The notes: generated from the letters alone by a model not told the origin. 64,000 bases of DNA from Flavobacterium sp. (GCF_046317795.1 NZ_JBKCVI010000087.1:3438-67437), one strand, 5' to 3'. Shown: positions 18,747 to 29,563, numbered from the stretch's first letter. Translations and numbers: made by a program.

Positions 18747-19223
18747 TCTAAAATTACTGATATTCTTGATATTAAATACCACAACCAGCAGTATTAGTTT
18801 ACAATATTAATTAAGTAGTAGTGCGATGAAAATAAGGATAGTTTTGATGAAAATCAAATGAACTATTTTGAGTGAATTGATAATATAAATTTGAAAAATC
18901 CTAAAATAACTGGCTTCAGAATAAGCAATAAAACATCAAAAAGGCGCTTTTATTGGCGGTAGTTCTGTCCAATACATTTCAAAGAACGGATTTCATTTTA
19001 ATAAAAATAATATGTATAATTCACTTTAAGTAAAATAAAATAATAAATTGATATACAAATAATTAAACATTTACTATAGATTTCACTTATACTGTTCTTA
19101 TTTTGATAATTGTATTAATTTTATTTAGCTAATTAGTTAGTTATCAACAATTTTGCAATTGTTACTATACATTTTCCTAAATTTGTTTTTACTTGTCAAA
19201 CCAACAACTAAAACCAAACTATT

Positions 19224-19571
19224 ATGGGACTTTTTAATACTCATGAAAAAAAAGTAATCACCGAACTCTGCCGAAAGAGTGAAGAAATAGGCAAAGACGT
19301 TAGCAGAGAAATAGACGAACTCTTTGACGATTTAAAAACTGATTATGACGAAAACAAAATTGTTATTAAAGAGTTTAATGATTTTGTAAACGAAATAGAA
19401 ACTAAACTTTCACCCCAAGATTTAGAGAAGCTTCACTCCTTTTCTTCTCGGCTGTACAAAGTAAAACGTTGTGCCAAAAAAGGTGTTGAAGCCATTCGAG
19501 AAATAGCTAGGGAACAAAAAAAAGCTACCAAAGAAACTGTTAGAGAGCATCAAGAATATTTATACACCTAA
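19224..19571 (+). CDS. Hypothetical coiled-coil protein
   Basis: 115-aa charged helical ORF, A-rich start context, TAAATTTG box upstream. Confidence 0.7.
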   Translation: MGLFNTHEKKVITELCRKSEEIGKDVSREIDELFDDLKTDYDENKIVIKEFNDFVNEIETKLSPQDLEKLHSFSSRLYKVKRCAKKGVEAIREIAREQKKATKETVREHQEYLYT

Positions 19572-19572
19572 A

Positions 19573-20331
19573 TTATCTTGTAAACACAATCGAATTTTCT
19601 TTGCTCAAGTTTGCGTCAAAAGTATACCCTTCATAGTTAAATCCTTTTAGGTCGTCGATAGTTTTTGCATTGGAGTCAATGATATAACGAACCATCATTC
19701 CCCTCGCCTTTTTAGCAAAAAAACTAATCATCTTAAGTTTACCGTCCTTATAATCTCTAAACTCTGGAGTAATTACTTGAACTTTCAAAGTCTTAGAATC
19801 TACCGCACTGAAATACTCATTACTAGCCAAGTTGATAAACAGTTCATCTTTTTGTAATTCATCATTTAAAGATTTGGTAATGGTTTTTTTCCAAAACTCG
19901 TATAAGTTTTTGTTTTTGCCAATCGCCATTGAAGTTCCCATTTCTAATCGATACGGCTGCATTAAATCCAACGGTTTAAGCAAACCGTACAATCCTGATA
20001 AAATTCGGAGTTTGTCCTGCAAAACGGCTAATTTGTCTAATGGTAAACTATAAACATCCAATCCTGCATACACATCACCATCAAAAGCAAAAACAGCTTG
20101 TCTGGAATTTTGCAAAGTAAAAGGTGTTTCCCATTCCTGATTGCGTTGCCAATTTAATTCGGCCAATTTCTCTGAAATATCCATTAACTCAGAAAGTTGC
20201 TTTGGTTTTTTCTTTTTTAACGTATTTTGAATAGTAGCAGCTTGTTTTAAAAACTGTGGTTCAGTGAAACTCATAGTCGGTAATGCTTTTTCAAAGTTTA
20301 AAGATTTGGCTGGAGATATAACGATTTTCAT
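19573..20331 (-). CDS. yaaA: Peroxide stress protein YaaA (UPF0246)
   Basis: ISPAKSL, FDGDVY, SGLYGLL, YRLEMG, NLASNEY, KKARG. Confidence 0.95.
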   Translation of the reverse strand: MKIVISPAKSLNFEKALPTMSFTEPQFLKQAATIQNTLKKKKPKQLSELMDISEKLAELNWQRNQEWETPFTLQNSRQAVFAFDGDVYAGLDVYSLPLDKLAVLQDKLRILSGLYGLLKPLDLMQPYRLEMGTSMAIGKNKNLYEFWKKTITKSLNDELQKDELFINLASNEYFSAVDSKTLKVQVITPEFRDYKDGKLKMISFFAKKARGMMVRYIIDSNAKTIDDLKGFNYEGYTFDANLSKENSIVFTR

Positions 20332-20431
20332 AATTTATTTTTATAAGTCAAAAATACGATTAATTATGATAATAAAAAGCGATAGCAAAATCTTAATTTA
20401 TCTATATTTGCCTAACTAAATCGATATAGTA

Positions 20432-21859
20432 ATGGAAGAATGCATCTCCGTTTTTGATATGCTAAAAATAGGTGTCGGACCATCAAGTTCCCATACTCTC
20501 GGACCATGGCGAGCCGCAGAACGTTTTCTCAACGAACTAAAAGCAGAAAACCTGTTAGACAAAACTACCAAAGTAAAAATTGATTTATACGGTTCGCTTT
20601 CCCTCACCGGAAAAGGACATGCTACAGATTATGCTGTGATGCTTGGACTGAGTGGTCAAGACCCAGAATACATTCCAGTAAAAAATATTGATAATATTGT
20701 ACAAACCATAAAAAAAACACATCAAATCAAATTAGCTAACGAACTAATGATACCATTTGATGCTGAAACCGATATTGTTTTCAATAAAAACTTTTTGCCG
20801 TTTCATGCTAATGGGTTGACTTTTACAGCTTATTTGATGGATGTTACAGAATATACCTCTACCTTCTACTCTATCGGTGGCGGATTTGTAGTCAAAGAAG
20901 AAAGGGTGAATGCCAAAAAGAAACTAGTCATAAAATGCGCCTTTCCTTTTCTTGTTGAAAATGCCGCTGATTTGCTGCAATATGCTATAACTGAGAATAA
21001 ATTAATCTCGGAGATTGTATATGCCAATGAAATCTCCATGCGTCCCGAAGCCGAGGTGCATAACGAACTAATTCGTATTTGGGAAACCATGCTCGAATGT
21101 ATGTATATCGGTTGTCACTCCGAAGGTATTTTGCCTGGTGGTTTAAATGTAAGACGACGCGCTTTTGATATGCATCAAGGTTTGATTGGTTTAGCCAATT
21201 ATACCAATCCACAAGAATGGTTAGAAACTATTCGAAAAACAGAAGTGAAGTTTAGACAAATTTTAAAATGGGTTTCCTGTTTTGCCTTAGCAGTAAACGA
21301 AGTTAATGCTGCATTGGGAAGAGTAGTCACTGCTCCGACTAATGGAAGTGCAGGTGTGATACCAGCCGTTCTAATGTATTATTTAGTAATTGAAAATCAT
21401 CAAGCTGGAGAAAAAGAAATAAAACAATTCTTGATGGTAGCGGGTGAAATTGGAAGTATCTTTAAAAAAGGTTCTACCATATCGGCTGCTATGGGTGGCT
21501 GTCAGGCAGAAATTGGCGTTTCGTCTGCTATGGCTGCTGCTGCACTTTGTGAAGTTATGGGTGGCACACCAGAACAAGTTTTAATGGCTGCCGAAATCGC
21601 TATGGAACATCACTTAGGGCTAACCTGCGACCCGATTGGCGGTTTGGTTCAAATTCCGTGTATAGAACGAAATACTATGGGAGCTATCAAAGCCATTAAC
21701 GCGGCAGAACTCGCCATGGAAACTGATGCTAAAAATGCCAAAGTACCATTGGATAAAGTAATTGATACGATGTGGCAAACGGCAAAAGACATGAACTCTA
21801 AATACAAAGAAACCTCCGAAGGCGGATTGGCTGTGGCGGTGAATATGGCGGATTGTTAA
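20432..21859 (+). CDS. sdaA: L-serine ammonia-lyase (Fe-S dependent)
   Basis: IGVGPSSSHT, APTNGSAG, GGCQAEIG, EHHLGLTCDP, PCIERN, ETSEGGLA. Confidence 0.96.
   Translation: MEECISVFDMLKIGVGPSSSHTLGPWRAAERFLNELKAENLLDKTTKVKIDLYGSLSLTGKGHATDYAVMLGLSGQDPEYIPVKNIDNIVQTIKKTHQIKLANELMIPFDAETDIVFNKNFLPFHANGLTFTAYLMDVTEYTSTFYSIGGGFVVKEERVNAKKKLVIKCAFPFLVENAADLLQYAITENKLISEIVYANEISMRPEAEVHNELIRIWETMLECMYIGCHSEGILPGGLNVRRRAFDMHQGLIGLANYTNPQEWLETIRKTEVKFRQILKWVSCFALAVNEVNAALGRVVTAPTNGSAGVIPAVLMYYLVIENHQAGEKEIKQFLMVAGEIGSIFKKGSTISAAMGGCQAEIGVSSAMAAAALCEVMGGTPEQVLMAAEIAMEHHLGLTCDPIGGLVQIPCIERNTMGAIKAINAAELAMETDAKNAKVPLDKVIDTMWQTAKDMNSKYKETSEGGLAVAVNMADC
21841..21858 (+). repeat. 18-bp direct repeat, left copy (3' end of sdaA)
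   Basis: GAATATGGCGGATTGTTA, identical to 25303-25320. Confidence 0.9.
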
Positions 21860-21920
21860 TTTGTTGCTAAACCACCCAAAAGCTTCGTTTTAAATCTGAT
21901 TTTAAAGTGAATAAAAAAAG

Positions 21921-22046
21921 TGCAAAGTCAGGTTCCGATAACTATCTGAATTGTGCAGCTTTTATAGAACTCTTTGTGGAGTTGGCATAATAATTTTTGA
22001 GAAAGAAAAATGTGAATTTTGCGCATTTTTCGGCATTTCTTGAAAC
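21921..22046. repeat. Inter-cassette repeat A1 (chimera: 21921-21984 matches A4, 21953-22046 matches A2)
   Basis: Core GTGCAGCTTTTATAGAACTCTTTGTGGAG at 21953-21981; 58/64 identical to 24414-24477; 89/94 identical to 22786-22879. Confidence 0.92.
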
Positions 22047-22051
22047 GGCTA

Positions 22052-22357
22052 TTATGCAACGTTTTTTTCTTTTCTGATACTATTAATTCTATTTACTTCG
22101 CTTTGTTTTTCAATCAATTCATTTTCTATATCATAGTCATCTTGAATACCCAACCAAAATTTTGCCGAGTTTCCGAAATATGCACTCAATCTTACAGCAG
22201 TATCAGCAGAAATTCTTCTGTTACCTTTAATTATTTCAGAAATCCTTGTTTGCGGAATATCTAAGTCTTTAGAAAGTCTGTATTGCGTAATTTGTAAAGG
22301 AATTAAAAATTCTTCTAATAAAATTTCTCCAGGTGTTATGTTTTTTAGCTTTTCCAT
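22052..22357 (-). CDS. higA: HigA family antitoxin (HTH)
   Basis: ITPGEILLEEFL...TQYRL...RISEIIKGNRRISADTA..L..YFG..A.FWL..Q. Confidence 0.92.
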   Translation of the reverse strand: MEKLKNITPGEILLEEFLIPLQITQYRLSKDLDIPQTRISEIIKGNRRISADTAVRLSAYFGNSAKFWLGIQDDYDIENELIEKQSEVNRINSIRKEKNVA

Positions 22358-22369
22358 TTTTCTATATTT

Positions 22370-22651
22370 TTAATGATAATCTATAATTCCAACTTCTAAA
22401 GCATTACCGTTATCCCATTTAAAAATAATTCTCCATTGGTTATTTATTCTTATACTGTTAAATTCTTTCAAATTGCCTTTTAGTTTTTCTAGTCTATTTG
22501 CTGGAGGAATCCTTAAATCGCTAACATCAATTGAGTTATTAATCATTCTCAATTTTCTTCTCGCCGTATCTTGAATTTCTCTAGGAAGTTTCTTTGACAC
22601 AATTCCATTCCAAATTTTTTCAGTTTCTTTATCTTTAAATGAAACAATCAT
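22370..22651 (-). CDS. higB: HigB family toxin (RelE superfamily, killer protein type)
   Basis: MIVSFKDKETEKIW...ARRKL...LRIPPANRLEKLKG...SIRINNQWRIIF..VGIIDYH; lies upstream of higA. Confidence 0.92.
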   Translation of the reverse strand: MIVSFKDKETEKIWNGIVSKKLPREIQDTARRKLRMINNSIDVSDLRIPPANRLEKLKGNLKEFNSIRINNQWRIIFKWDNGNALEVGIIDYH

Positions 22652-22671
22652 ACTCTTTTCGATACTAACGT

Positions 22672-22679
22672 CAAAGATA
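22672..22679 (-). promoter_or_regulatory. -7 box (TATCTTTG) for higBA
   Basis: Plus-strand CAAAGATA about 20 nt upstream of the higB start. Confidence 0.6.
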
Positions 22680-22726
22680 AGTATTCATTTGATAAGTTTT
22701 CATATAAACAGGATTTTTTCGAAAAT

Positions 22727-22890
22727 GTTGCATAACTTGTATATAGGTCTGAGACATTTACTTCGTCCGTTCGCTTTGCTTGGGTGCGCAGCTTTTATAG
22801 AACTCTTTGTAAAGCTGGGATAATAATTTTTGAGAAAGAAAAATGTGAATTTTGCGCATTTTTCGGCATTTCTTGAAACTGCTGTAAGCC
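22727..22890 (-). repeat. Inter-cassette repeat A2 / chimeric attC-like site (GGCTTAC ... GTTATGC on minus strand)
   Basis: Core at 22786-22814; 60-bp block 22820-22879 identical to 21987-22046; ends in integron-like core GTTATGCAAC (22736-22727). Confidence 0.8.
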
Positions 22891-22897
22891 GAAGTAG

Positions 22898-23188
22898 CTA
22901 TAATTCGATTTGAATTTTCACTTTTCCTCCTAACCCTTTTTCCACTATATCATACAAAGTTTTGAGAGTCAAATTACTTCCGTTATTTTCTATTTTGGAA
23001 ATATATTCTCTTTTCTTGTCCACTAAATTCCCAAGCTCAGTTTGAGTTAGGTGTTTTTCTTCACGAGCTTTTTTTAAGAGTAAACCAATTTTAAAACCTT
23101 GGAATTCTCTTTCAAGTTCGTCACGTCTTTCGGTTCCTATTTCACCGTAAACATTATTTTTAATTTCTTTCCAGCTTTTAGTTTCCAT
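22898..23188 (-). CDS. XRE/HTH antitoxin of RelE/Gp49-type TA pair
   Basis: KIGLLLKKAREEKHLTQTELG..V...REYISKIEN; adjacent to a toxin fragment. Confidence 0.85.
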   Translation of the reverse strand: METKSWKEIKNNVYGEIGTERRDELEREFQGFKIGLLLKKAREEKHLTQTELGNLVDKKREYISKIENNGSNLTLKTLYDIVEKGLGGKVKIQIEL

Positions 23189-23190
23189 AG

Positions 23191-23327
23191 TTATTTAGAT
23201 TTTTTTTCTGTGTAATATTTAGTCATTAATTTCAATGCTTTTTCCATTTCATTTTTCGGTGTCTTCTGCGTTTTCTTTTGAAACCCATTTAAAAGAATGA
23301 CAAGTTTTCCGTGGTCAAAAAAGCAAA
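23191..23327 (-). pseudogene. 5'-truncated RelE/ParE (Gp49-like) toxin
   Basis: C-terminal CFFDHGKLVILLNGFQKKTQKTPKNEMEKALKL typical of Gp49-like toxins; the upstream part is replaced by repeat A3. Confidence 0.8.
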
Positions 23328-23365
23328 GAGACATTTGCGCAGCTTTTATAGAACTCTTTGTGGAG
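23328..23365. repeat. Inter-cassette repeat A3
   Basis: GAGACATTT + GCGCAGCTTTTATAGAACTCTTTGTGGAG; equals A2 minus the 26 bp at 22760-22785. Confidence 0.9.
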
Positions 23366-23414
23366 CAGGGCAAACATATCAAGGGGATTTATTTGAGGAC
23401 AAGGATATTTAAAC

Positions 23415-23440
23415 AAAAAAGCCCCAGTTAAGGGGCTTTT
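23415..23440 (-). terminator. Intrinsic terminator after 23448..23750
   Basis: AAAAAAGCCCC-agtta-AGGGGCTTTT hairpin with A/T tracts on both sides. Confidence 0.75.
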
Positions 23441-23447
23441 ATTATTT

Positions 23448-23750
23448 TTAATGTGGAACGAAATGACCTCCCTCTTTCCAATCTCTATTTTCCTCATACC
23501 AATCCAACAATTCTCGCATAAATCCCCAAACTATAGCAGTTCCTGTGGCTTGCATAAAATTTACTTGTGGTTCATCATATTTATCATCTTCAAATTCTCT
23601 TATCACAATTCTGCGTTTATGGAGAGGTTTATGACCAGTAATTATGTATGCGTGAGACCTACCGATCTTAAAATATCCGTTTGGCTCAAGTACTTGTTTA
23701 GCTCTTATCTGTTCATCGATAAAGCTAATGTCTACTGTGGGATGTGACAT
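23448..23750 (-). CDS. Hypothetical protein, weakly HicA-like
   Basis: TAA-ATG coupled to upstream ORF and followed by a terminator; VLEPNGYFKIGRSH resembles the HicA GSH motif. Confidence 0.55.
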   Translation of the reverse strand: MSHPTVDISFIDEQIRAKQVLEPNGYFKIGRSHAYIITGHKPLHKRRIVIREFEDDKYDEPQVNFMQATGTAIVWGFMRELLDWYEENRDWKEGGHFVPH

Positions 23751-24128
23751 TTAACAGGTTAATTCAAGTGTTTCAACAAATTTGTCACCTGTTTCCATAA
23801 TTTGGTCAAATATTACATTCGAAGTGTTGAATGACATTATTACAGACCCTTTATCTTCTGATATAAATTCCCAACCTAATAACCTTAGTTCAGTTTCCAA
23901 TCCGCTACCGAATTTTTCACTTGTTACACAAAAAAGATTTACACACTCTTTAATGGCTTCTTGGGCATCTAACTCATCTTTAGCAAAGGTCTTAATACCT
24001 AAAAAAGGAATGTTAACCGACATAAATTCATCCTCAACAATTTTATCCCATATAGGCATATCAATTGTTATAGAAGATAGCTTTCCATCAAGTCTATTAA
24101 TTTCAATATTTGCTTCAGTAAATTTCAC
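23751..24128 (-). CDS. Hypothetical protein, HicB-like N-terminal pattern
   Basis: SVNIPFLGIKTFAKDELDAQEAIKECVNLF resembles HicB 'P.LpG..T.G.t.eEA...ikEai.l'; GTG start uncertain. Confidence 0.6.
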   Translation of the reverse strand: MKFTEANIEINRLDGKLSSITIDMPIWDKIVEDEFMSVNIPFLGIKTFAKDELDAQEAIKECVNLFCVTSEKFGSGLETELRLLGWEFISEDKGSVIMSFNTSNVIFDQIMETGDKFVETLELTC

Positions 24129-24413
24129 TTGGAGTAATTTTCATTGGTTTTTTTGATATTACAAATGTATAAACAAAACATTAAATTTAATTTTTTTAGT
24201 CTATTAAAATACAAATAATATCGATGAAATGTAATTTTGCTTATTTTTTGTAATATTTAGTTTAATATTAAATACAAAGTTATTAACAAACTATATTAAT
24301 AAGTTATAAAATTCCGTTAAATTTTTACATAATTGTTGTTTTAAAAATTTATAACAAAACATATATTCGATATATAAACGTAAAAAGTTACAATTTATTA
24401 TATTTGCTTACCC

Positions 24414-24477
24414 TGCAAAGTCCGGTTCCGATAGCCATCGGAATTGCGCAGCTTTTATAGAATTCTTTGTGGAGTTG
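24414..24477. repeat. Inter-cassette repeat A4
   Basis: Core at 24446-24474; 58/64 identical to 21921-21984; contains CCGATAGCCATCGG palindrome. Confidence 0.92.
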
Positions 24478-24478
24478 T

Positions 24479-25060
24479 TTATTTTATTTCAAGTTTCTCC
24501 CAAATGCCCTCGTCCTTGAGTTGCTTAATTAAGTCCGAGAGTTTCTGTTTTTTATTGAGAGTAACATAGTTTGTTCGCTTATCGTCAGTTTTGAAGCATA
24601 TATTTTTATCACAAAAAATACGTTTCAAAACTGAAGTCCTTTTATCAGTTTTTGAAGTCTTAATAAAATATTCAGTTGTTACAGTCCCAATTGTATCGGT
24701 TTCTTTTTCCCAGTTATAGTTTTTCTCAACCATCAAACTGTCATAGGTAAGAACTACAATATCATTCTTAATTTTATATTTCCCTTTGTAATACCAATCG
24801 TCCGATTCACAAACGTCTATGGTCAAAAAGTCATTGTCATTAAGAAATAAAAGACTACCAGAACAACAATCGCATTCTCCAAATGCTTCGCAAGTATTCT
24901 TGTCAAGTTCTGGTGCATAAAAATAAACTTGTCCAGATAAGTTTAGTGCTATATACTTTGCTAGGGTTATTTTTTTAACGGTTTTGTTTGTAGTTGGTTC
25001 ATTGCAAGAATGAAGTGCTAATATAATAAAGAAAAATATTAATTTAATTAGGTTTTTCAT
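24479..25060 (-). CDS. Hypothetical Cys-rich lipoprotein (cassette cargo)
   Basis: Lipobox LHSC; CEAFGECDCC cluster; stop codon abuts repeat A4. Confidence 0.75.
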   Translation of the reverse strand: MKNLIKLIFFFIILALHSCNEPTTNKTVKKITLAKYIALNLSGQVYFYAPELDKNTCEAFGECDCCSGSLLFLNDNDFLTIDVCESDDWYYKGKYKIKNDIVVLTYDSLMVEKNYNWEKETDTIGTVTTEYFIKTSKTDKRTSVLKRIFCDKNICFKTDDKRTNYVTLNKKQKLSDLIKQLKDEGIWEKLEIK

Positions 25061-25103
25061 TATGCTTCAATTTGTTGTTTCTAGGACGGTCGGACGCCAT
25101 CCA

Positions 25104-25165
25104 TTACGGCTAACGTTTCCTTGCTAGAGCCCCACTGCGCAATTCCGAAAGCTATCGGAATTGAG
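25104..25165 (-). repeat. attC-like right arm ending in core GTTAGCC (25114-25108) plus palindrome CAATTCCGAAAGCTATCGGAATTG (25140-25163)
   Basis: GTTRRRY-type core 48 nt upstream of the lipoprotein start codon. Confidence 0.55.
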
Positions 25166-25302
25166 GAGTAGCGCAATGAGTTTTTTTTTAACTGTCGCTT
25201 CAAATATAATCAAAATCACCATGCAACTTTATTGCCAGCTAAAAAAACTAGTGGGTTTGTGATTGCTCTCGAACGTGGGTATAGTTTACAAATCCGCTAT
25301 CG

Positions 25303-25320
25303 GAATATGGCGGATTGTTA
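25303..25320 (+). repeat. 18-bp direct repeat, right copy (overlaps porin stop codon)
   Basis: GAATATGGCGGATTGTTA, identical to 21841-21858. Confidence 0.9.
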
Positions 25321-26370
25321 GAATTCAAAAGACAAACTAGACGTTATAAAAAAGTTATTGTTAACAGGGATTTCATCTTTTGAGAATACTTTTTCTTGGC
25401 TGTTTAAATACCGTGCTTCGGTTCTCAATTTTACTTTAGAATTAAAAAGATAATCTATATTTAAAGACGTACCGAGTGTTTTAAATTCATCATTTATAGC
25501 AATAATAACAGCATCTTTATCCTGATAATACTCGGCTCGGAAAGCCGTTTGCCATTTGGGTGCCAACGTATATTGCATTATTAACACGGGACTCATCCAA
25601 TATAATTTGTTGTTATTATTTGTTACATCAGTTTGCATTCCTGCATCAAAACCAATAATAGTTCGCCACTTGGAATTCCATTTATTGTCCCAATACAAAT
25701 TACTAAAATAACGCATTCCCCATTGGTCATTATACCATTCTTTGCCCATAAAAGTGCTCCAATTAAACAATGAATTTGTAGATGGTTTATAGATAATCTG
25801 TGAACCAAAAGCAGGTCCAACATTCTTATCGGGTTTGTTGATGCGTTGCCATCCATTGGTTAGTAAACCAGAGAAAGTCCATTTTTCATTAGCAGTAAAA
25901 GTATACTTTATACCTGTCATAAAATAAGGAGAATTATCGGCTAATAACGAACGGGTTAAGGTTACATTTGAAGAATTGTTTGCGGTTTCAAATCCTATAT
26001 AACTTGGTAAAATTCCCAACTCTATGGTTGACTTTTTTGCTTTATCGAGATACAAACCCACATAAGCTTCATTAATGATTTTAGTGGTTTCGTTAGCATA
26101 ATTATCTTCTACATAGGTTCCAGCTTGTAGCGCCAATACTGCATAAGCATTATCATATTCTGCTTTAGCTCTTAGTAGCCCGATGTTTACATTAAACTCG
26201 TTATGCCGGTTATAATTGTACATAAACGGAAGTTTTTGTTCGGAATTTGGCGTATTGAAATCATAGCTGTAATAGGTTTCTAAAAATCCCGAAAAGGATA
26301 GTTTTAGGTCTTTATTTTCTTGAGCAAAAGCAGAAAATCCAATGCAAAAAATTATTATAAAACGCTTCAT
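25318..26370 (-). CDS. Outer-membrane beta-barrel porin (OmpL-like/DUF1597 type)
   Basis: Signal peptide, YYSYDFN, SYIGFE, PYFMTG, GWQRI, terminal aromatic residue (SFEF). Confidence 0.8.
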   Translation of the reverse strand: MKRFIIIFCIGFSAFAQENKDLKLSFSGFLETYYSYDFNTPNSEQKLPFMYNYNRHNEFNVNIGLLRAKAEYDNAYAVLALQAGTYVEDNYANETTKIINEAYVGLYLDKAKKSTIELGILPSYIGFETANNSSNVTLTRSLLADNSPYFMTGIKYTFTANEKWTFSGLLTNGWQRINKPDKNVGPAFGSQIIYKPSTNSLFNWSTFMGKEWYNDQWGMRYFSNLYWDNKWNSKWRTIIGFDAGMQTDVTNNNNKLYWMSPVLIMQYTLAPKWQTAFRAEYYQDKDAVIIAINDEFKTLGTSLNIDYLFNSKVKLRTEARYLNSQEKVFSKDEIPVNNNFFITSSLSFEF

Positions 26371-26801
26371 TACTTCCTTCTAGTATCTATGAGGTGTATT
26401 ATTTTCCAAGTAGTTACCTCAAAATACAAGGTGAAAGCGTTAACACCTTTATGGCTTAACTTTCCATTGACATAAAATTCATAAGGTGTCCAAACGTGTG
26501 CCATCGATCCATCAACTTGGATGTTGTAGCTCAGTATTCTTTCTTCAAATTTAATATCGGCAGGAATGGAAGCGATAGATTTGTAAAACGCTGCTGGTTT
26601 CTCATCAGAAAGTTTATTCCCTTTGGTGTTTTCCGAAATTGATTGCAAAATCATGGTGCTACTGCAAGTCGATTTGATTTTGATGGTGTCTTTGGTATGA
26701 AACCCTTCGAAGAAAGTCTCAATAGTTTTTTGCACTTGCTCCTTTTGTGCATTGACAATTCCAACACATAATAAAACGACTACTAGCAGTATTTTTTTCA
26801 T
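26370..26801 (-). CDS. NTF2-like / lumazine-binding family secreted protein
   Basis: MKKILLVVVLL signal; FEERIL..IQVDGSMAHVWTPYEFY..SHKGVNAF; start 26801 preferred. Confidence 0.8.
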   Translation of the reverse strand: MKKILLVVVLLCVGIVNAQKEQVQKTIETFFEGFHTKDTIKIKSTCSSTMILQSISENTKGNKLSDEKPAAFYKSIASIPADIKFEERILSYNIQVDGSMAHVWTPYEFYVNGKLSHKGVNAFTLYFEVTTWKIIHLIDTRRK

Positions 26802-26805
26802 ATTG

Positions 26806-28110
26806 CTAATATTTAGACCATTTGTAGAGTTCTTTCCATGTTGGTTTTTTGCCATACATTAAAATTCCAACTCGATAGATTTTGGCAGCAAACCAAACTA
26901 CCCCAAAGAATGTAGCGAATAACAACACCATGGAAACGATGATTTGCCACAGCGGAACACCAAACGGAATTCGCATCATCATTACGATGGGTGAGGTCAA
27001 TGGTATCATAGAGAAAACTGTTGCTACCGTTCCGTGAGGGTCATTCATTACGGTAAAAAACCCAATATAAACACCTAATATCAAAGGCATGATAATAGGT
27101 AACAAGAATTGTTGCGAGTCGGTTTCGTTATCCACTGCAGCACCAATAGAAGCATAAAACGAGCTGTATAAGAAATAACCACCAATAAAATAAATGACAA
27201 ACGAAATGAGTATAGTAGCTATGGGCAAGTTCCAAAGTTCTTTAATGTAAAGTTGGATGGTTCCTCCCATTTCACTTTGTGCCGTTTGCATGGCTTGTCC
27301 TTGAATACCCGAAGTTGCACCCATTTGCACACCAAAAATGGAAGACAATACAAACATGGCGGTTAACCCGAGGATTGCCCAAATGAAAAACTGCAAAATT
27401 CCAGCCAATGACGTGCCAATTATTTTTCCCATCATCAATTGAAATGGTTTTACTGAGGAGATTATGACTTCAATAATTCGAGATACTTTTTCTTCGATAA
27501 CGCTACGCATGACCATATTACCATAAATTACAATAAACATCATAATGAGGTAACCAAAAGCACCACCAATAGCGATTTTGATTTCGTTTAACCCTTTTAA
27601 AGCTGCTTCACCTGATGCTTTGGTGAGTTTGATGTCAACGGCAGCATTGGCATTTTTAATCGCTAACGTATCTAAACCCGATTTGATATAGTTTTCTTGC
27701 GTGAGCTTTTCGGCTACAATGTCTTCGATATCGTCAATAAACATGACACTCGGGCTGTCATTGGAAATATATTGAATACTTTTTTCGAGCGCTTTGTTAT
27801 CGGTTACTTTTGGGATGACTAAAAGGCCTTCATAACTTTCGCTGACAATGCTATCTTTTAGAGTTTTGGTGTTAACCGATGATAAATCAACATATTTATA
27901 TTCGTCATCACTTTTAAATTCTTGGGCAAACAAACCCGTTTCATCATGAATAGCAATGGTTTTTAAATCGGCTTTCATAGCACTTAAATAGCCCACAAAA
28001 ACAGCAATACCTACAAACAATAACGGACTTAAAAAAGTCATTACAATAAATGATTTATTGCGCACTTTGGCGATAAATTCTCTTTTGATAATCAAACTTA
28101 ATTTACTCAT
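26806..28110 (-). CDS. ABC-2 type exporter permease (NatB-like)
   Basis: IIKREF..KVRNKSF, VIEEKVSRIIEVIISSV.PFQLMMGKI; start 28110 preferred. Confidence 0.88.
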   Translation of the reverse strand: MSKLSLIIKREFIAKVRNKSFIVMTFLSPLLFVGIAVFVGYLSAMKADLKTIAIHDETGLFAQEFKSDDEYKYVDLSSVNTKTLKDSIVSESYEGLLVIPKVTDNKALEKSIQYISNDSPSVMFIDDIEDIVAEKLTQENYIKSGLDTLAIKNANAAVDIKLTKASGEAALKGLNEIKIAIGGAFGYLIMMFIVIYGNMVMRSVIEEKVSRIIEVIISSVKPFQLMMGKIIGTSLAGILQFFIWAILGLTAMFVLSSIFGVQMGATSGIQGQAMQTAQSEMGGTIQLYIKELWNLPIATILISFVIYFIGGYFLYSSFYASIGAAVDNETDSQQFLLPIIMPLILGVYIGFFTVMNDPHGTVATVFSMIPLTSPIVMMMRIPFGVPLWQIIVSMVLLFATFFGVVWFAAKIYRVGILMYGKKPTWKELYKWSKY

Positions 28111-29120: not shown

Positions 29121-29414
29121 AATGTCAAGTTCAAGTTCAATGTCAAGTTCAATGTCAAAATTCAAAGTCAAAATTCAAAGTCAAAATTCAATAGCCATGT
29201 AAATCTCATAATATTGTTATTGCTATTGTTATTGCTATTGTTATTGCTATTGCTTATTTTATTGTTATTGCTTTTTTTATTGTTATTGCTTTTTTTATTG
29301 CAATTGATATTGTTATTGTTATTGCTATTGTTATTGCTATTGCTTATTTTATTGTTATTGCTTTTTTTATTGCTTTTTTTATTGCAATTGATATTGCTAT
29401 TGTTATTGCTATTG
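29121..29414. repeat. Two-block hexamer microsatellite (TCAAnn block, then ATTGYT block with a ~95-bp higher-order duplication)
   Basis: aatgtcaagttcaagttcaatgtc... followed by (attgttattgct)n. Confidence 0.88.
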
Positions 29415-29563
29415 AATTCGGTAAAAGTACTGAATAAGTAACTAAAGGAAAATAAAAGTTACAAAAAACCCACCCTAATTTTTACACGAGGATGGGAAAA
29501 ATTGCTATGAAAAAGAAATTACTTGTTTCCAAGTAATAGCCAAATGTAAAACTTATTTTTTAA

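Follow-up and report, generated by a model that had tools for sequence, protein, structure and literature searches.

What is a toxin–antitoxin (TA) gene pair doing in a small island next to the 3' end of sdaA, and is it an ordinary chromosomal locus or a cassette able to move as a unit? The pair in question, higBA, lies on the minus strand of a 64,000-nucleotide stretch of DNA from Flavobacterium sp. (GCF_046317795.1, NZ_JBKCVI010000087.1:3438-67437). This whole stretch is referred to here as the window, and positions are counted from its first nucleotide. An initial annotation, made from the sequence alone, had described the pair as a unit with the core and inverse-core architecture of an integron gene cassette. 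The higBA unit (~22736–21987, minus strand) is, with high probability, a gene cassette of an integron-like system that is common in Flavobacterium and also belongs to other Bacteroidota. The direct observations behind this reading are the boundaries of the unit, the family of sites to which its end belongs, the pairing rules of that family, its arrays, and the linkage of the arrays to a recombinase gene and a conserved junction.

The unit consists of two intact open reading frames (ORFs) between two recognizable ends. The first gene, higB (22370–22651, minus), encodes a RelE-like toxin of 93 aa (Pfam PF05015, E=1.1e-22), and the second, higA (22052–22357, minus), encodes a helix-turn-helix (HTH) antitoxin of 101 aa (Pfam PF01381, HTH_3, E=3.8e-8). 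A RelE-fold HigB toxin encoded 5' of an HTH antitoxin is the arrangement by which HigBA type II systems are recognized. The order of toxin before antitoxin and the HigB-like and HTH_3 domains are the same as in those systems, and the proteins in the window are ordinary members. A putative Bacteroidota −7 promoter box, TATCTTTG (TAnnTTTG; 22672–22679, minus), can be read from the sequence 20 nt 5' of the higB ATG, inside the cassette. The cassette start is an R'-type core, GTTATGCAACATTTT (22722–22736, minus), which fits the family consensus GTTAnnnnn.A.. with its A at position 11. Crossover at this end would be expected between G22736 and T22735. At the other end is an R''-type inverse core, AAAACGTTGCATAAT (22051–22065, minus).

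Much of the initial description of these ends holds. The unit begins with GTTATGCAAC (22736–22727) and ends with GTTGCATAAT (22060–22051) on the minus strand, and GTTATGCAACATTTT (22736–22722) is complementary at 13 of 15 positions to AAAACGTTGCATAAT (22065–22051), each of the two being compared through the reverse complement of the latter. The higA stop codon (TAA, 22054–22052) lies within the inverse core, inside GCATAAT, where the canonical AAC, present in 159 of 162 family sites, is changed to AAT. The promoter box proposed at first is present and conserved in a second copy of the unit (below), its role as a promoter being putative. One point needs amendment: the extent of 22046–22736 is exact at the start but too short at the end, as the recombination site reaches ~21987. 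This terminal portion (21987–22055, minus), here called repeat M1, is the 5' half of an attC-like site. It matches positions 4–72 of a 134-position profile (nhmmer, 50 bits), and its 3' arm is missing.

The second copy of the unit occurs in another Flavobacterium species (genome G032), where the higBA pair is 89% identical at the DNA level and the neighbours differ from those in the window. The two HigB proteins share 89 of 93 residues, and the two HigA proteins 94 of 101. The alignment of the two copies opens at the first G of GTTATGCAAC, spans higB, higA and GCATAA(T/C), and closes at the end of M1; outside the aligned unit, the flanks are unrelated on both sides. The G032 copy has an intact GCATAAC and a full-length site, so that the same cassette with other neighbours and an unmutated site, which the initial annotation had suggested looking for, does exist. 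Its junctions read GGGCG|GTTATGC... and ...AAATCG|ACAGCGG, with no target-site duplication.

The presence of the unit at unrelated positions in two genomes, together with terminal inverted repeats of 9–10 bp, could also be expected of a small non-autonomous transposon resembling a miniature inverted-repeat transposable element (MITE), with GTTATGCAAC/GTTGCATAAC as its termini and a transposase to move it. However, such an element does not fit the two junctions in G032 (GGGCG|G... and ...TCG|ACAGC), which lack a target-site duplication. Nor does it fit an inverted repeat that varies from cassette to cassette while keeping one rule, or head-to-tail arrays beside a tyrosine recombinase, and it is extremely improbable.

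Most higBA homologues in the genus are syntenic copies and not cassettes. A homologue is found in 50 of the 301 genomes of the genus. Among 18 more distant loci (L078–L095, ~74–78% identity), one downstream gene is common to 16, and none of the 18 has a GTTATGCAAC start or a site at the end of higA. The homology of the syntenic copies to the cassette covers only the promoter and the two genes, and begins at query position 58 (window 22683), just 5' of the promoter box. The gene pair is therefore seen in two forms, one a stable chromosomal locus and the other the cassette of the window and G032. These two forms may record the birth of a cassette from a chromosomal gene pair, or the reverse.

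The syntenic copies raise the question of whether the window simply contains an ordinary chromosomal higBA, never mobile as a unit, whose complementary ends and repeats result from chance or local duplication. An inverted repeat of 9–10 nt is, taken alone, weak evidence for anything else. The initial annotation had held that its reading would fail if homologous loci lacked the end motifs and always had the same flanks. The distant homologues do lack the motifs and mostly share a flank, but the closest homologue, in G032, differs in its neighbours and has a boundary exactly at GTTATGCAAC. The pairing at 13 of 15 positions goes beyond chance because the G032 homology starts at GTTATGCAAC and because both mismatches fit the pattern of a larger family of cassettes.

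This family is defined by its sites. Repeat M1, of ~64 nt, follows both higA and the neighbouring HTH antitoxin gene, and is also found elsewhere in the same genome and in other species of the genus. In these other copies M1 runs on into a second conserved part, giving an element of ~134 nt. The element is present in at least 83 of the 301 genomes (BLAST, with at most two candidates scored per genome), and a profile search finds ~15 copies in the window's own genome. In complete genomes the profile search shows long arrays in which all sites are co-oriented. The array in G240 extends over ~36 kb with at least 36 sites, that in G268 over ~24 kb, and further arrays occur in G261, G153 and G145. 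The median spacing of the sites is 784 bp (113 consecutive pairs). A variable nnnnTAAC precedes the site and GTTAnnnn follows on its 3' side, with the core triplets conserved as AAC in 159 and GTT in 148 of 162 sites. The ~134-nt element is probably the folded recombination site of each cassette.

Each cassette start is complementary to the inverse core of the site at the other end of the same cassette. In 113 consecutive site pairs, the bases that follow the upstream site were compared with the reverse complement of the downstream site's inverse core. These own-cassette comparisons match at frequencies of 0.84–0.91 at positions 5–9 and 0.81–0.88 at positions 12–14, against only 0.27–0.59 in same-site and random controls. 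Position 11 is the exception, with pairing in 0.02 of the own-cassette comparisons; at this position the start has an A, opposite a C of the inverse-core strand. The 13 of 15 matches in the window fit this rule, since the two mismatches are position 11 itself and the change of AAC to AAT. Ends that follow a family-wide rule, down to the mismatch at position 11, and a downstream repeat that is a genus-wide element found in arrays are not what an ordinary chromosomal locus would offer, and that explanation is highly improbable.

The resulting structure consists of two stems in series. The R stem, of 14 bp or more, contains a single fixed C·A mismatch. The L stem, of ~20 bp, lies directly inside the inverse core and the 3' end, and appears as a single long diagonal in an unbiased column-pair scan of the 162-site profile alignment. 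Twelve of its pairs show two to four Watson–Crick pair types, 91% of sites keep a T·G pair, and at one A×C position pairing is essentially absent. A 1×5 loop, in which an A stands against GRAAC, separates the two stems. Three positions are fixed as non-Watson–Crick (columns 13/115 and 22/106, and position 11 of the R stem) and are candidate marks of strand or register.

The covariation of bases that are otherwise free to vary points to selection on a folded strand. Each site was rebuilt in its excised form and folded as DNA on both strands; in 105 of 113 cases the bottom strand came out as the more stable, with mean energies of −29.8 versus −26.3 kcal/mol. The rebuilt site of the G032 higBA cassette folds with its R stem closed, at a z-score of about −3.2. 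By analogy with attC, the folded strand under selection is probably DNA, and probably the bottom one. The window's own sites give weak z-scores, from −1.4 to −3.1, because their 3' arms are missing. A scan of 19000–27000 against Rfam (E≤1) returned two chance-level matches only, which carries little weight as Rfam has no attC family.

A tyrosine recombinase gene stands directly upstream of the array, on the same strand, at all seven of the array starts that were reached. The product has 347 aa in G240, G268, G196, G134 and G067 (the last cut by a contig end), and ~584 aa in G261 and G228. Its catalytic motifs are conserved, and it has an extra N-terminal region of ~75 aa. Two of the 347-aa proteins score 222–224 bits, and the 584-aa form 192 bits, on NCBIfam NF040815 (XerA / 'integron integrase', cut-off 220). 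On the IntI model TIGR02249 the array-adjacent recombinases score 203–218 bits, below the cut-off of 265. The best match among solved structures is XerA (5hxy, 133 bits), in one contiguous alignment. VchIntIA (IntI4) aligns in two pieces, leaving its residues 180–241 unmatched where the query has only 20 residues. By these comparisons the array-heading recombinase is placed between Xer and IntI, and it lacks the IntI-specific insertion.

The recombinase family is widespread, being found in 173 of the 301 genomes of the genus (E≤1e-45) and in 55 of 401 genomes, or 35 of 179 genera, of the phylum (E≤1e-70). Twenty further recombinase loci were located, ten of them with same-strand sites downstream. 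Contigs of many draft genomes end ~108 nt from the recombinase gene (for example G241:C8:108-1148, G014:C40:108-1148 and G019:C15:110-1150), and the assemblies seem to break in a shared repeat 5' of the gene. An intact ~580-aa recombinase, 62% identical to the array-heading enzyme of G261, is encoded on another contig of the window's own genome (C111:2675-4417). Between its stop codon and a junction TATTTACTA|GTTATAGCC is AAAATGTTGCATAAC (C111:4420-4480), which is nearly the inverse core of the higBA cassette.

The integron-type cassette architecture seen at the outset stands, although the system is not a canonical integron: IntI is nearly absent and the recombinase lacks the IntI insertion. 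This bears on the idea that the island is a canonical integron remnant, that is, a cluster of attC sites lacking integron-integrases (CALIN), with true attC cassettes and a classical IntI since lost. The AAC...GTT architecture, the co-oriented arrays, the TA modules and the 203–218 bits on TIGR02249 would all agree with such a remnant. However, TIGR02249 exceeds its cut-off in none of the contigs of the window's own genome and in only one of the 301 genomes of the genus. That sole match (G251:C174:652-1518, L049) is on a ~1.5-kb stretch in an assembly with 5% contamination, has no family site beside it, and may be foreign DNA. The recombinase at the array starts is without the IntI insertion, and the sites belong to one conserved element of ~134 nt, which has a 1×5 internal loop and fixed mismatches in place of the R/unpaired central spacer/L layout with extrahelical bases. 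Surveys report almost no integrons in Bacteroidetes: for this group, IntegronFinder 2.0 mentions only the In0 elements of its previous survey, plus a single new complete integron from Salinibacter (PMC9024848). A canonical remnant is very unlikely on these grounds.

A Xer-dependent module has to be weighed as well. Modules like those of the Acinetobacter plasmid pdif system have double-stranded dif-like sites acted on by housekeeping enzymes of the XerC/D type, and often carry TA genes. The associated recombinase here is Xer-like, and the closest solved structures are XerA proteins. However, each cassette has one long site and not two inverted 28-bp sites, and all sites in an array are co-oriented. 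Covarying stems of ~34 bp point to selection on a folded strand, for which double-stranded dif recombination has no need, and the recombinase is encoded at the array head with its own conserved junction. A pdif-like module has accordingly been given very little probability, and an integron-like cassette system remains the preferred reading.

The junction between the recombinase gene and the first cassette has a characteristic layout. In most of 24 loci the recombinase stop is followed by a TATATTTG box, a hairpin, a ACCCAAAnnTGGGTG box and a second hairpin. The region closes with (C/A)TATATAC(A/T)A|GTTA, in the junction form ...TATATACAA|GTTA, the last part being the beginning of the first cassette. 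This conserved junction probably acts as an attI site. In the window, a decayed attI-like junction, CAAAGCGAAC...GTCTCAGACCTATATACAA (22737–22778, minus), ends at the cassette start GTTATGCAAC and matches the post-recombinase region in relatives. Its best match is the junction of G191, with a local score of 39 against a mean of 15 and a maximum of 27 in 500 shuffles. The match implies that higBA is the first cassette at a decayed junction from which the recombinase gene has been lost. An earlier reading of the sequence before higBA, as a degenerate 3' end belonging to the site of the neighbouring cassette, accounts for it less well than an attI-like remnant does. A complete attI-like region also occurs on another contig of the same genome (C3, ~1830–1900), comprising the TATATTTG box, two hairpins and GGGTATATACAA|GTTGTGTG, with no recombinase gene upstream. 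It is a second 'headless' platform in that genome.

These elements can be arranged in a cycle resembling that of integrons. Each cassette brings one ~134-nt 3' site, running from the inverse core ...TAAC to ...GRAAC-G|TTA.... On excision, the inverse core would pair with the first bases of its own cassette to form the R stem, followed by the L stem. The array-heading recombinase is the likely catalyst, acting on a single-stranded substrate; it would cut between the G and TT of the folded strand, probably the bottom strand. Exchange of this strand with an attI-like site or with the site of another cassette would lead to capture, excision and reordering, as in integrons. The occurrence of one cassette at unrelated positions in two species lends indirect support to such excision and insertion. 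The join in an excised circle would read ...GRAACG|TTATGCAAC, and insertion would take place at ...TATATACAA|G.

In the window the platform has since decayed, with the loss of the recombinase gene and most of the attI-like region, leaving higBA as the first cassette at the remnant. A local repeat (M2, below) has taken the place of the 3' arms of both sites. The initial suggestion that the array is frozen agrees with the mutated AAC, the 3' arms missing from both sites, and the lack of a recombinase gene beside the array. The higBA cassette is most probably immobile and fixed in place, because it has AAT for AAC, no 3' arm and no adjacent recombinase gene. On balance, the window seems likely to capture two stages of a life cycle: higBA is seen both as a locus and as a cassette, and the platform is without its recombinase, with its first cassette frozen.

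The cassette lies in an island of 3,462 bp between sdaA and a gene for a BBP2 porin. An exact 18-bp direct repeat marks both bounds, one copy at the 3' end of sdaA (21841–21858) and the other overlapping the porin stop codon (25303–25320). In five relatives (G168, G214, G138, G139 and G147) the site is empty and reads ...GAATATGGCGGATTGTTAGAATTCAAAAG, the two genes sdaA and porin standing tail to tail. At this position other genomes contain inserts ranging from ~35 bp to 1.7 kb, which makes it an insertion hot spot. Platforms with the ~584-aa recombinase, and their arrays, lie directly after sdaA in G261 and G228 (L074, L059), and the G268 array is between sdaA and yaaA, so that such platforms occur repeatedly in the vicinity of sdaA. 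Arrival of the island with a ~584-aa platform was considered and not adopted, as the platforms in G261 and G228 are oriented opposite to the window and the sdaA tail was not found in duplicate.

From the porin side, the minus strand of the island carries a lipoprotein-like cassette, a two-gene unit, a Gp49 stub with an HTH antitoxin gene and half a site, and then higBA. The lipoprotein-like cassette gene (24479–25060, minus; 193 aa) is preceded by GGAAAC|GTTAGCCGTAATGG (25101–25120, minus), where a canonical site end gives way to the first bases of the lipoprotein cassette, whose position 11 is an A. The two coupled genes (23448–24128, minus) encode products of 125 aa and 100 aa with no Pfam match. 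Next to higBA, a Gp49/HigB-family TA pair is represented by its HTH antitoxin (22898–23188, minus; Pfam PF01381, E=2.9e-11) and a C-terminal stub of the toxin (23191–23335, minus), which covers only positions 55–89 of 90 of PF05973. The 5' half of this cassette's site (22814–22890, minus; nhmmer positions 2–78, 54.5 bits) has the inverse core GGCTTAC at 22890–22884, with TAC in place of AAC, as had been noted at the start. A full-length paralogue of the TA cassette with the stubbed toxin (23191–23382) is found on another contig of the window's own genome, in the region C184:9317-9437 (L005), with its own site, between thyA and folA.

A second repeat, M2, is present at every joint between units in the island. 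Its sequence is CTCCACAAAGAGTTCTATAAAAGCTGCGCA, with or without a hairpin, TTCCGATGGCTATCGGAA. Full copies are at 21921–21985 (minus), where M2 replaces the 3' arm of the higBA site, and at 24414–24477 (minus); partial copies are at 22785–22819 and 23336–23370 (both minus), the latter cutting off the Gp49 toxin gene. An inverted part lies at 25135–25168, and M2 thereby forms 26-nt inverted repeats on either side of the lipoprotein gene. M2 also abuts the junction remnant at the place where the recombinase gene would stand. It is essentially private to the island, the only other occurrences being one fragment, on contig C160, and two weak copies, in G017. A variant 3' half of the site, a MITE and the hairpin of another type of attI are considered as candidates for its identity. 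Outside the island, an 18-nt tandem repeat of ~10–11 copies, ATTGTTATTGCT-like, is present at 29194–29450, inside or beside a plus-strand ORF.

Several observations weigh against the integron-like reading. Neither site in the window has a 3' arm, so the folded structure is not demonstrable for this copy, and the reading does not account for the origin of M2 or for the 18-bp duplication around the island. The window's own genome is without the 347-aa recombinase and has only the ~580-aa relative, on another contig. Half of the 20 further recombinase loci are without a same-strand downstream site by profile; three of these end at a contig edge, and the others may carry divergent sites. Across the genus the co-occurrence of site and recombinase is weak to moderate (odds ratio 2.8, p=2e-4), in a count where two candidates were scored per genome and one site subfamily served as the query.

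The system is filed here as integron-like and not as an integron. It has the G|TT boundary, the complementarity of cassette start and inverse core, and an attI-like site. It does not have an IntI with the additional domain, and the label is chosen because this defining domain is lacking and because the site, a fold similar in kind to the attC hairpin with its R and L boxes, unpaired spacer and extrahelical bases, differs from it in detail. The additional domain is called necessary for integron-mediated recombination in a study of archaeal integrons (bioRxiv 10.1101/2022.02.06.479319). A search of the full-text literature, the coverage of which is incomplete so that absence is not proof, found no description of such a system, and the Flavobacterium system appears to be undescribed. 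It is reasonably likely that the Bacteroidota have their own lineage of gene-capture platforms, with a Xer-like recombinase that lacks the IntI insertion and with fixed C·A and T·G marks in place of extrahelical bases, and that this lineage has escaped notice because neither of the defining markers has its textbook form. If so, the capture of cassettes through folded sites would not need the IntI additional domain, and a large pool of cassettes would be opened in an abundant environmental phylum. The fixed mismatches lead to testable hypotheses on the recognition of strand and register, and the syntenic and cassette forms of higBA are a matched pair for the study of cassette origin. For the locus itself, the reading accounts for the presence of a TA pair in a small island beside the end of sdaA and for its present fixation at that place.

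Among known systems, the Vibrio cholerae superintegron, with its VCR (Vibrio cholerae repeat) sites and higBA cassettes, is similar in many respects. Both systems have long co-oriented arrays of short cassettes, with one homogeneous, genus-typical folded site per cassette. In both, the 5' end of the site is an inverse core ...AAC and the 3' end is G|TT, pairing joins the cassette start to the cassette's own inverse core, and a recombinase and an attI-type junction are found at one end of the array. TA cassettes of the Vibrio superintegron carry their own promoters, like the higBA cassette. However, the Flavobacterium recombinase is without the IntI insertion and has an N-terminal region of ~75 aa, and its gene points in the same direction as the cassettes and has the junction on its 3' side. 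The site also differs, having a 1×5 loop, two fixed C·A/A·C mismatches and one fixed T·G pair where extrahelical bases have been described, and its central ~70 nt are conserved and not variable.

The orientation of the recombinase gene has a parallel in the inverted integrase of the Treponema denticola type, in which the gene is co-directional with the cassettes and the insertion site is on its 3' side. That integrase is, however, a true IntI with the additional domain, which is absent from the Flavobacterium enzyme. The XerA, XerC and XerD resolvases share their catalytic motifs with the enzyme, and XerA is its best match, but the Flavobacterium recombinase heads arrays with a dedicated junction, has an extra N-terminal region, and is associated with long folded sites and not with a 28-bp dif. 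CALIN-type remnants resemble the window in having cassettes and site remnants without an adjacent recombinase gene. The window differs from them in its sites, which are not canonical attC sites and of which both copies are 5' halves only, and in its parent system, which is not an IntI integron.

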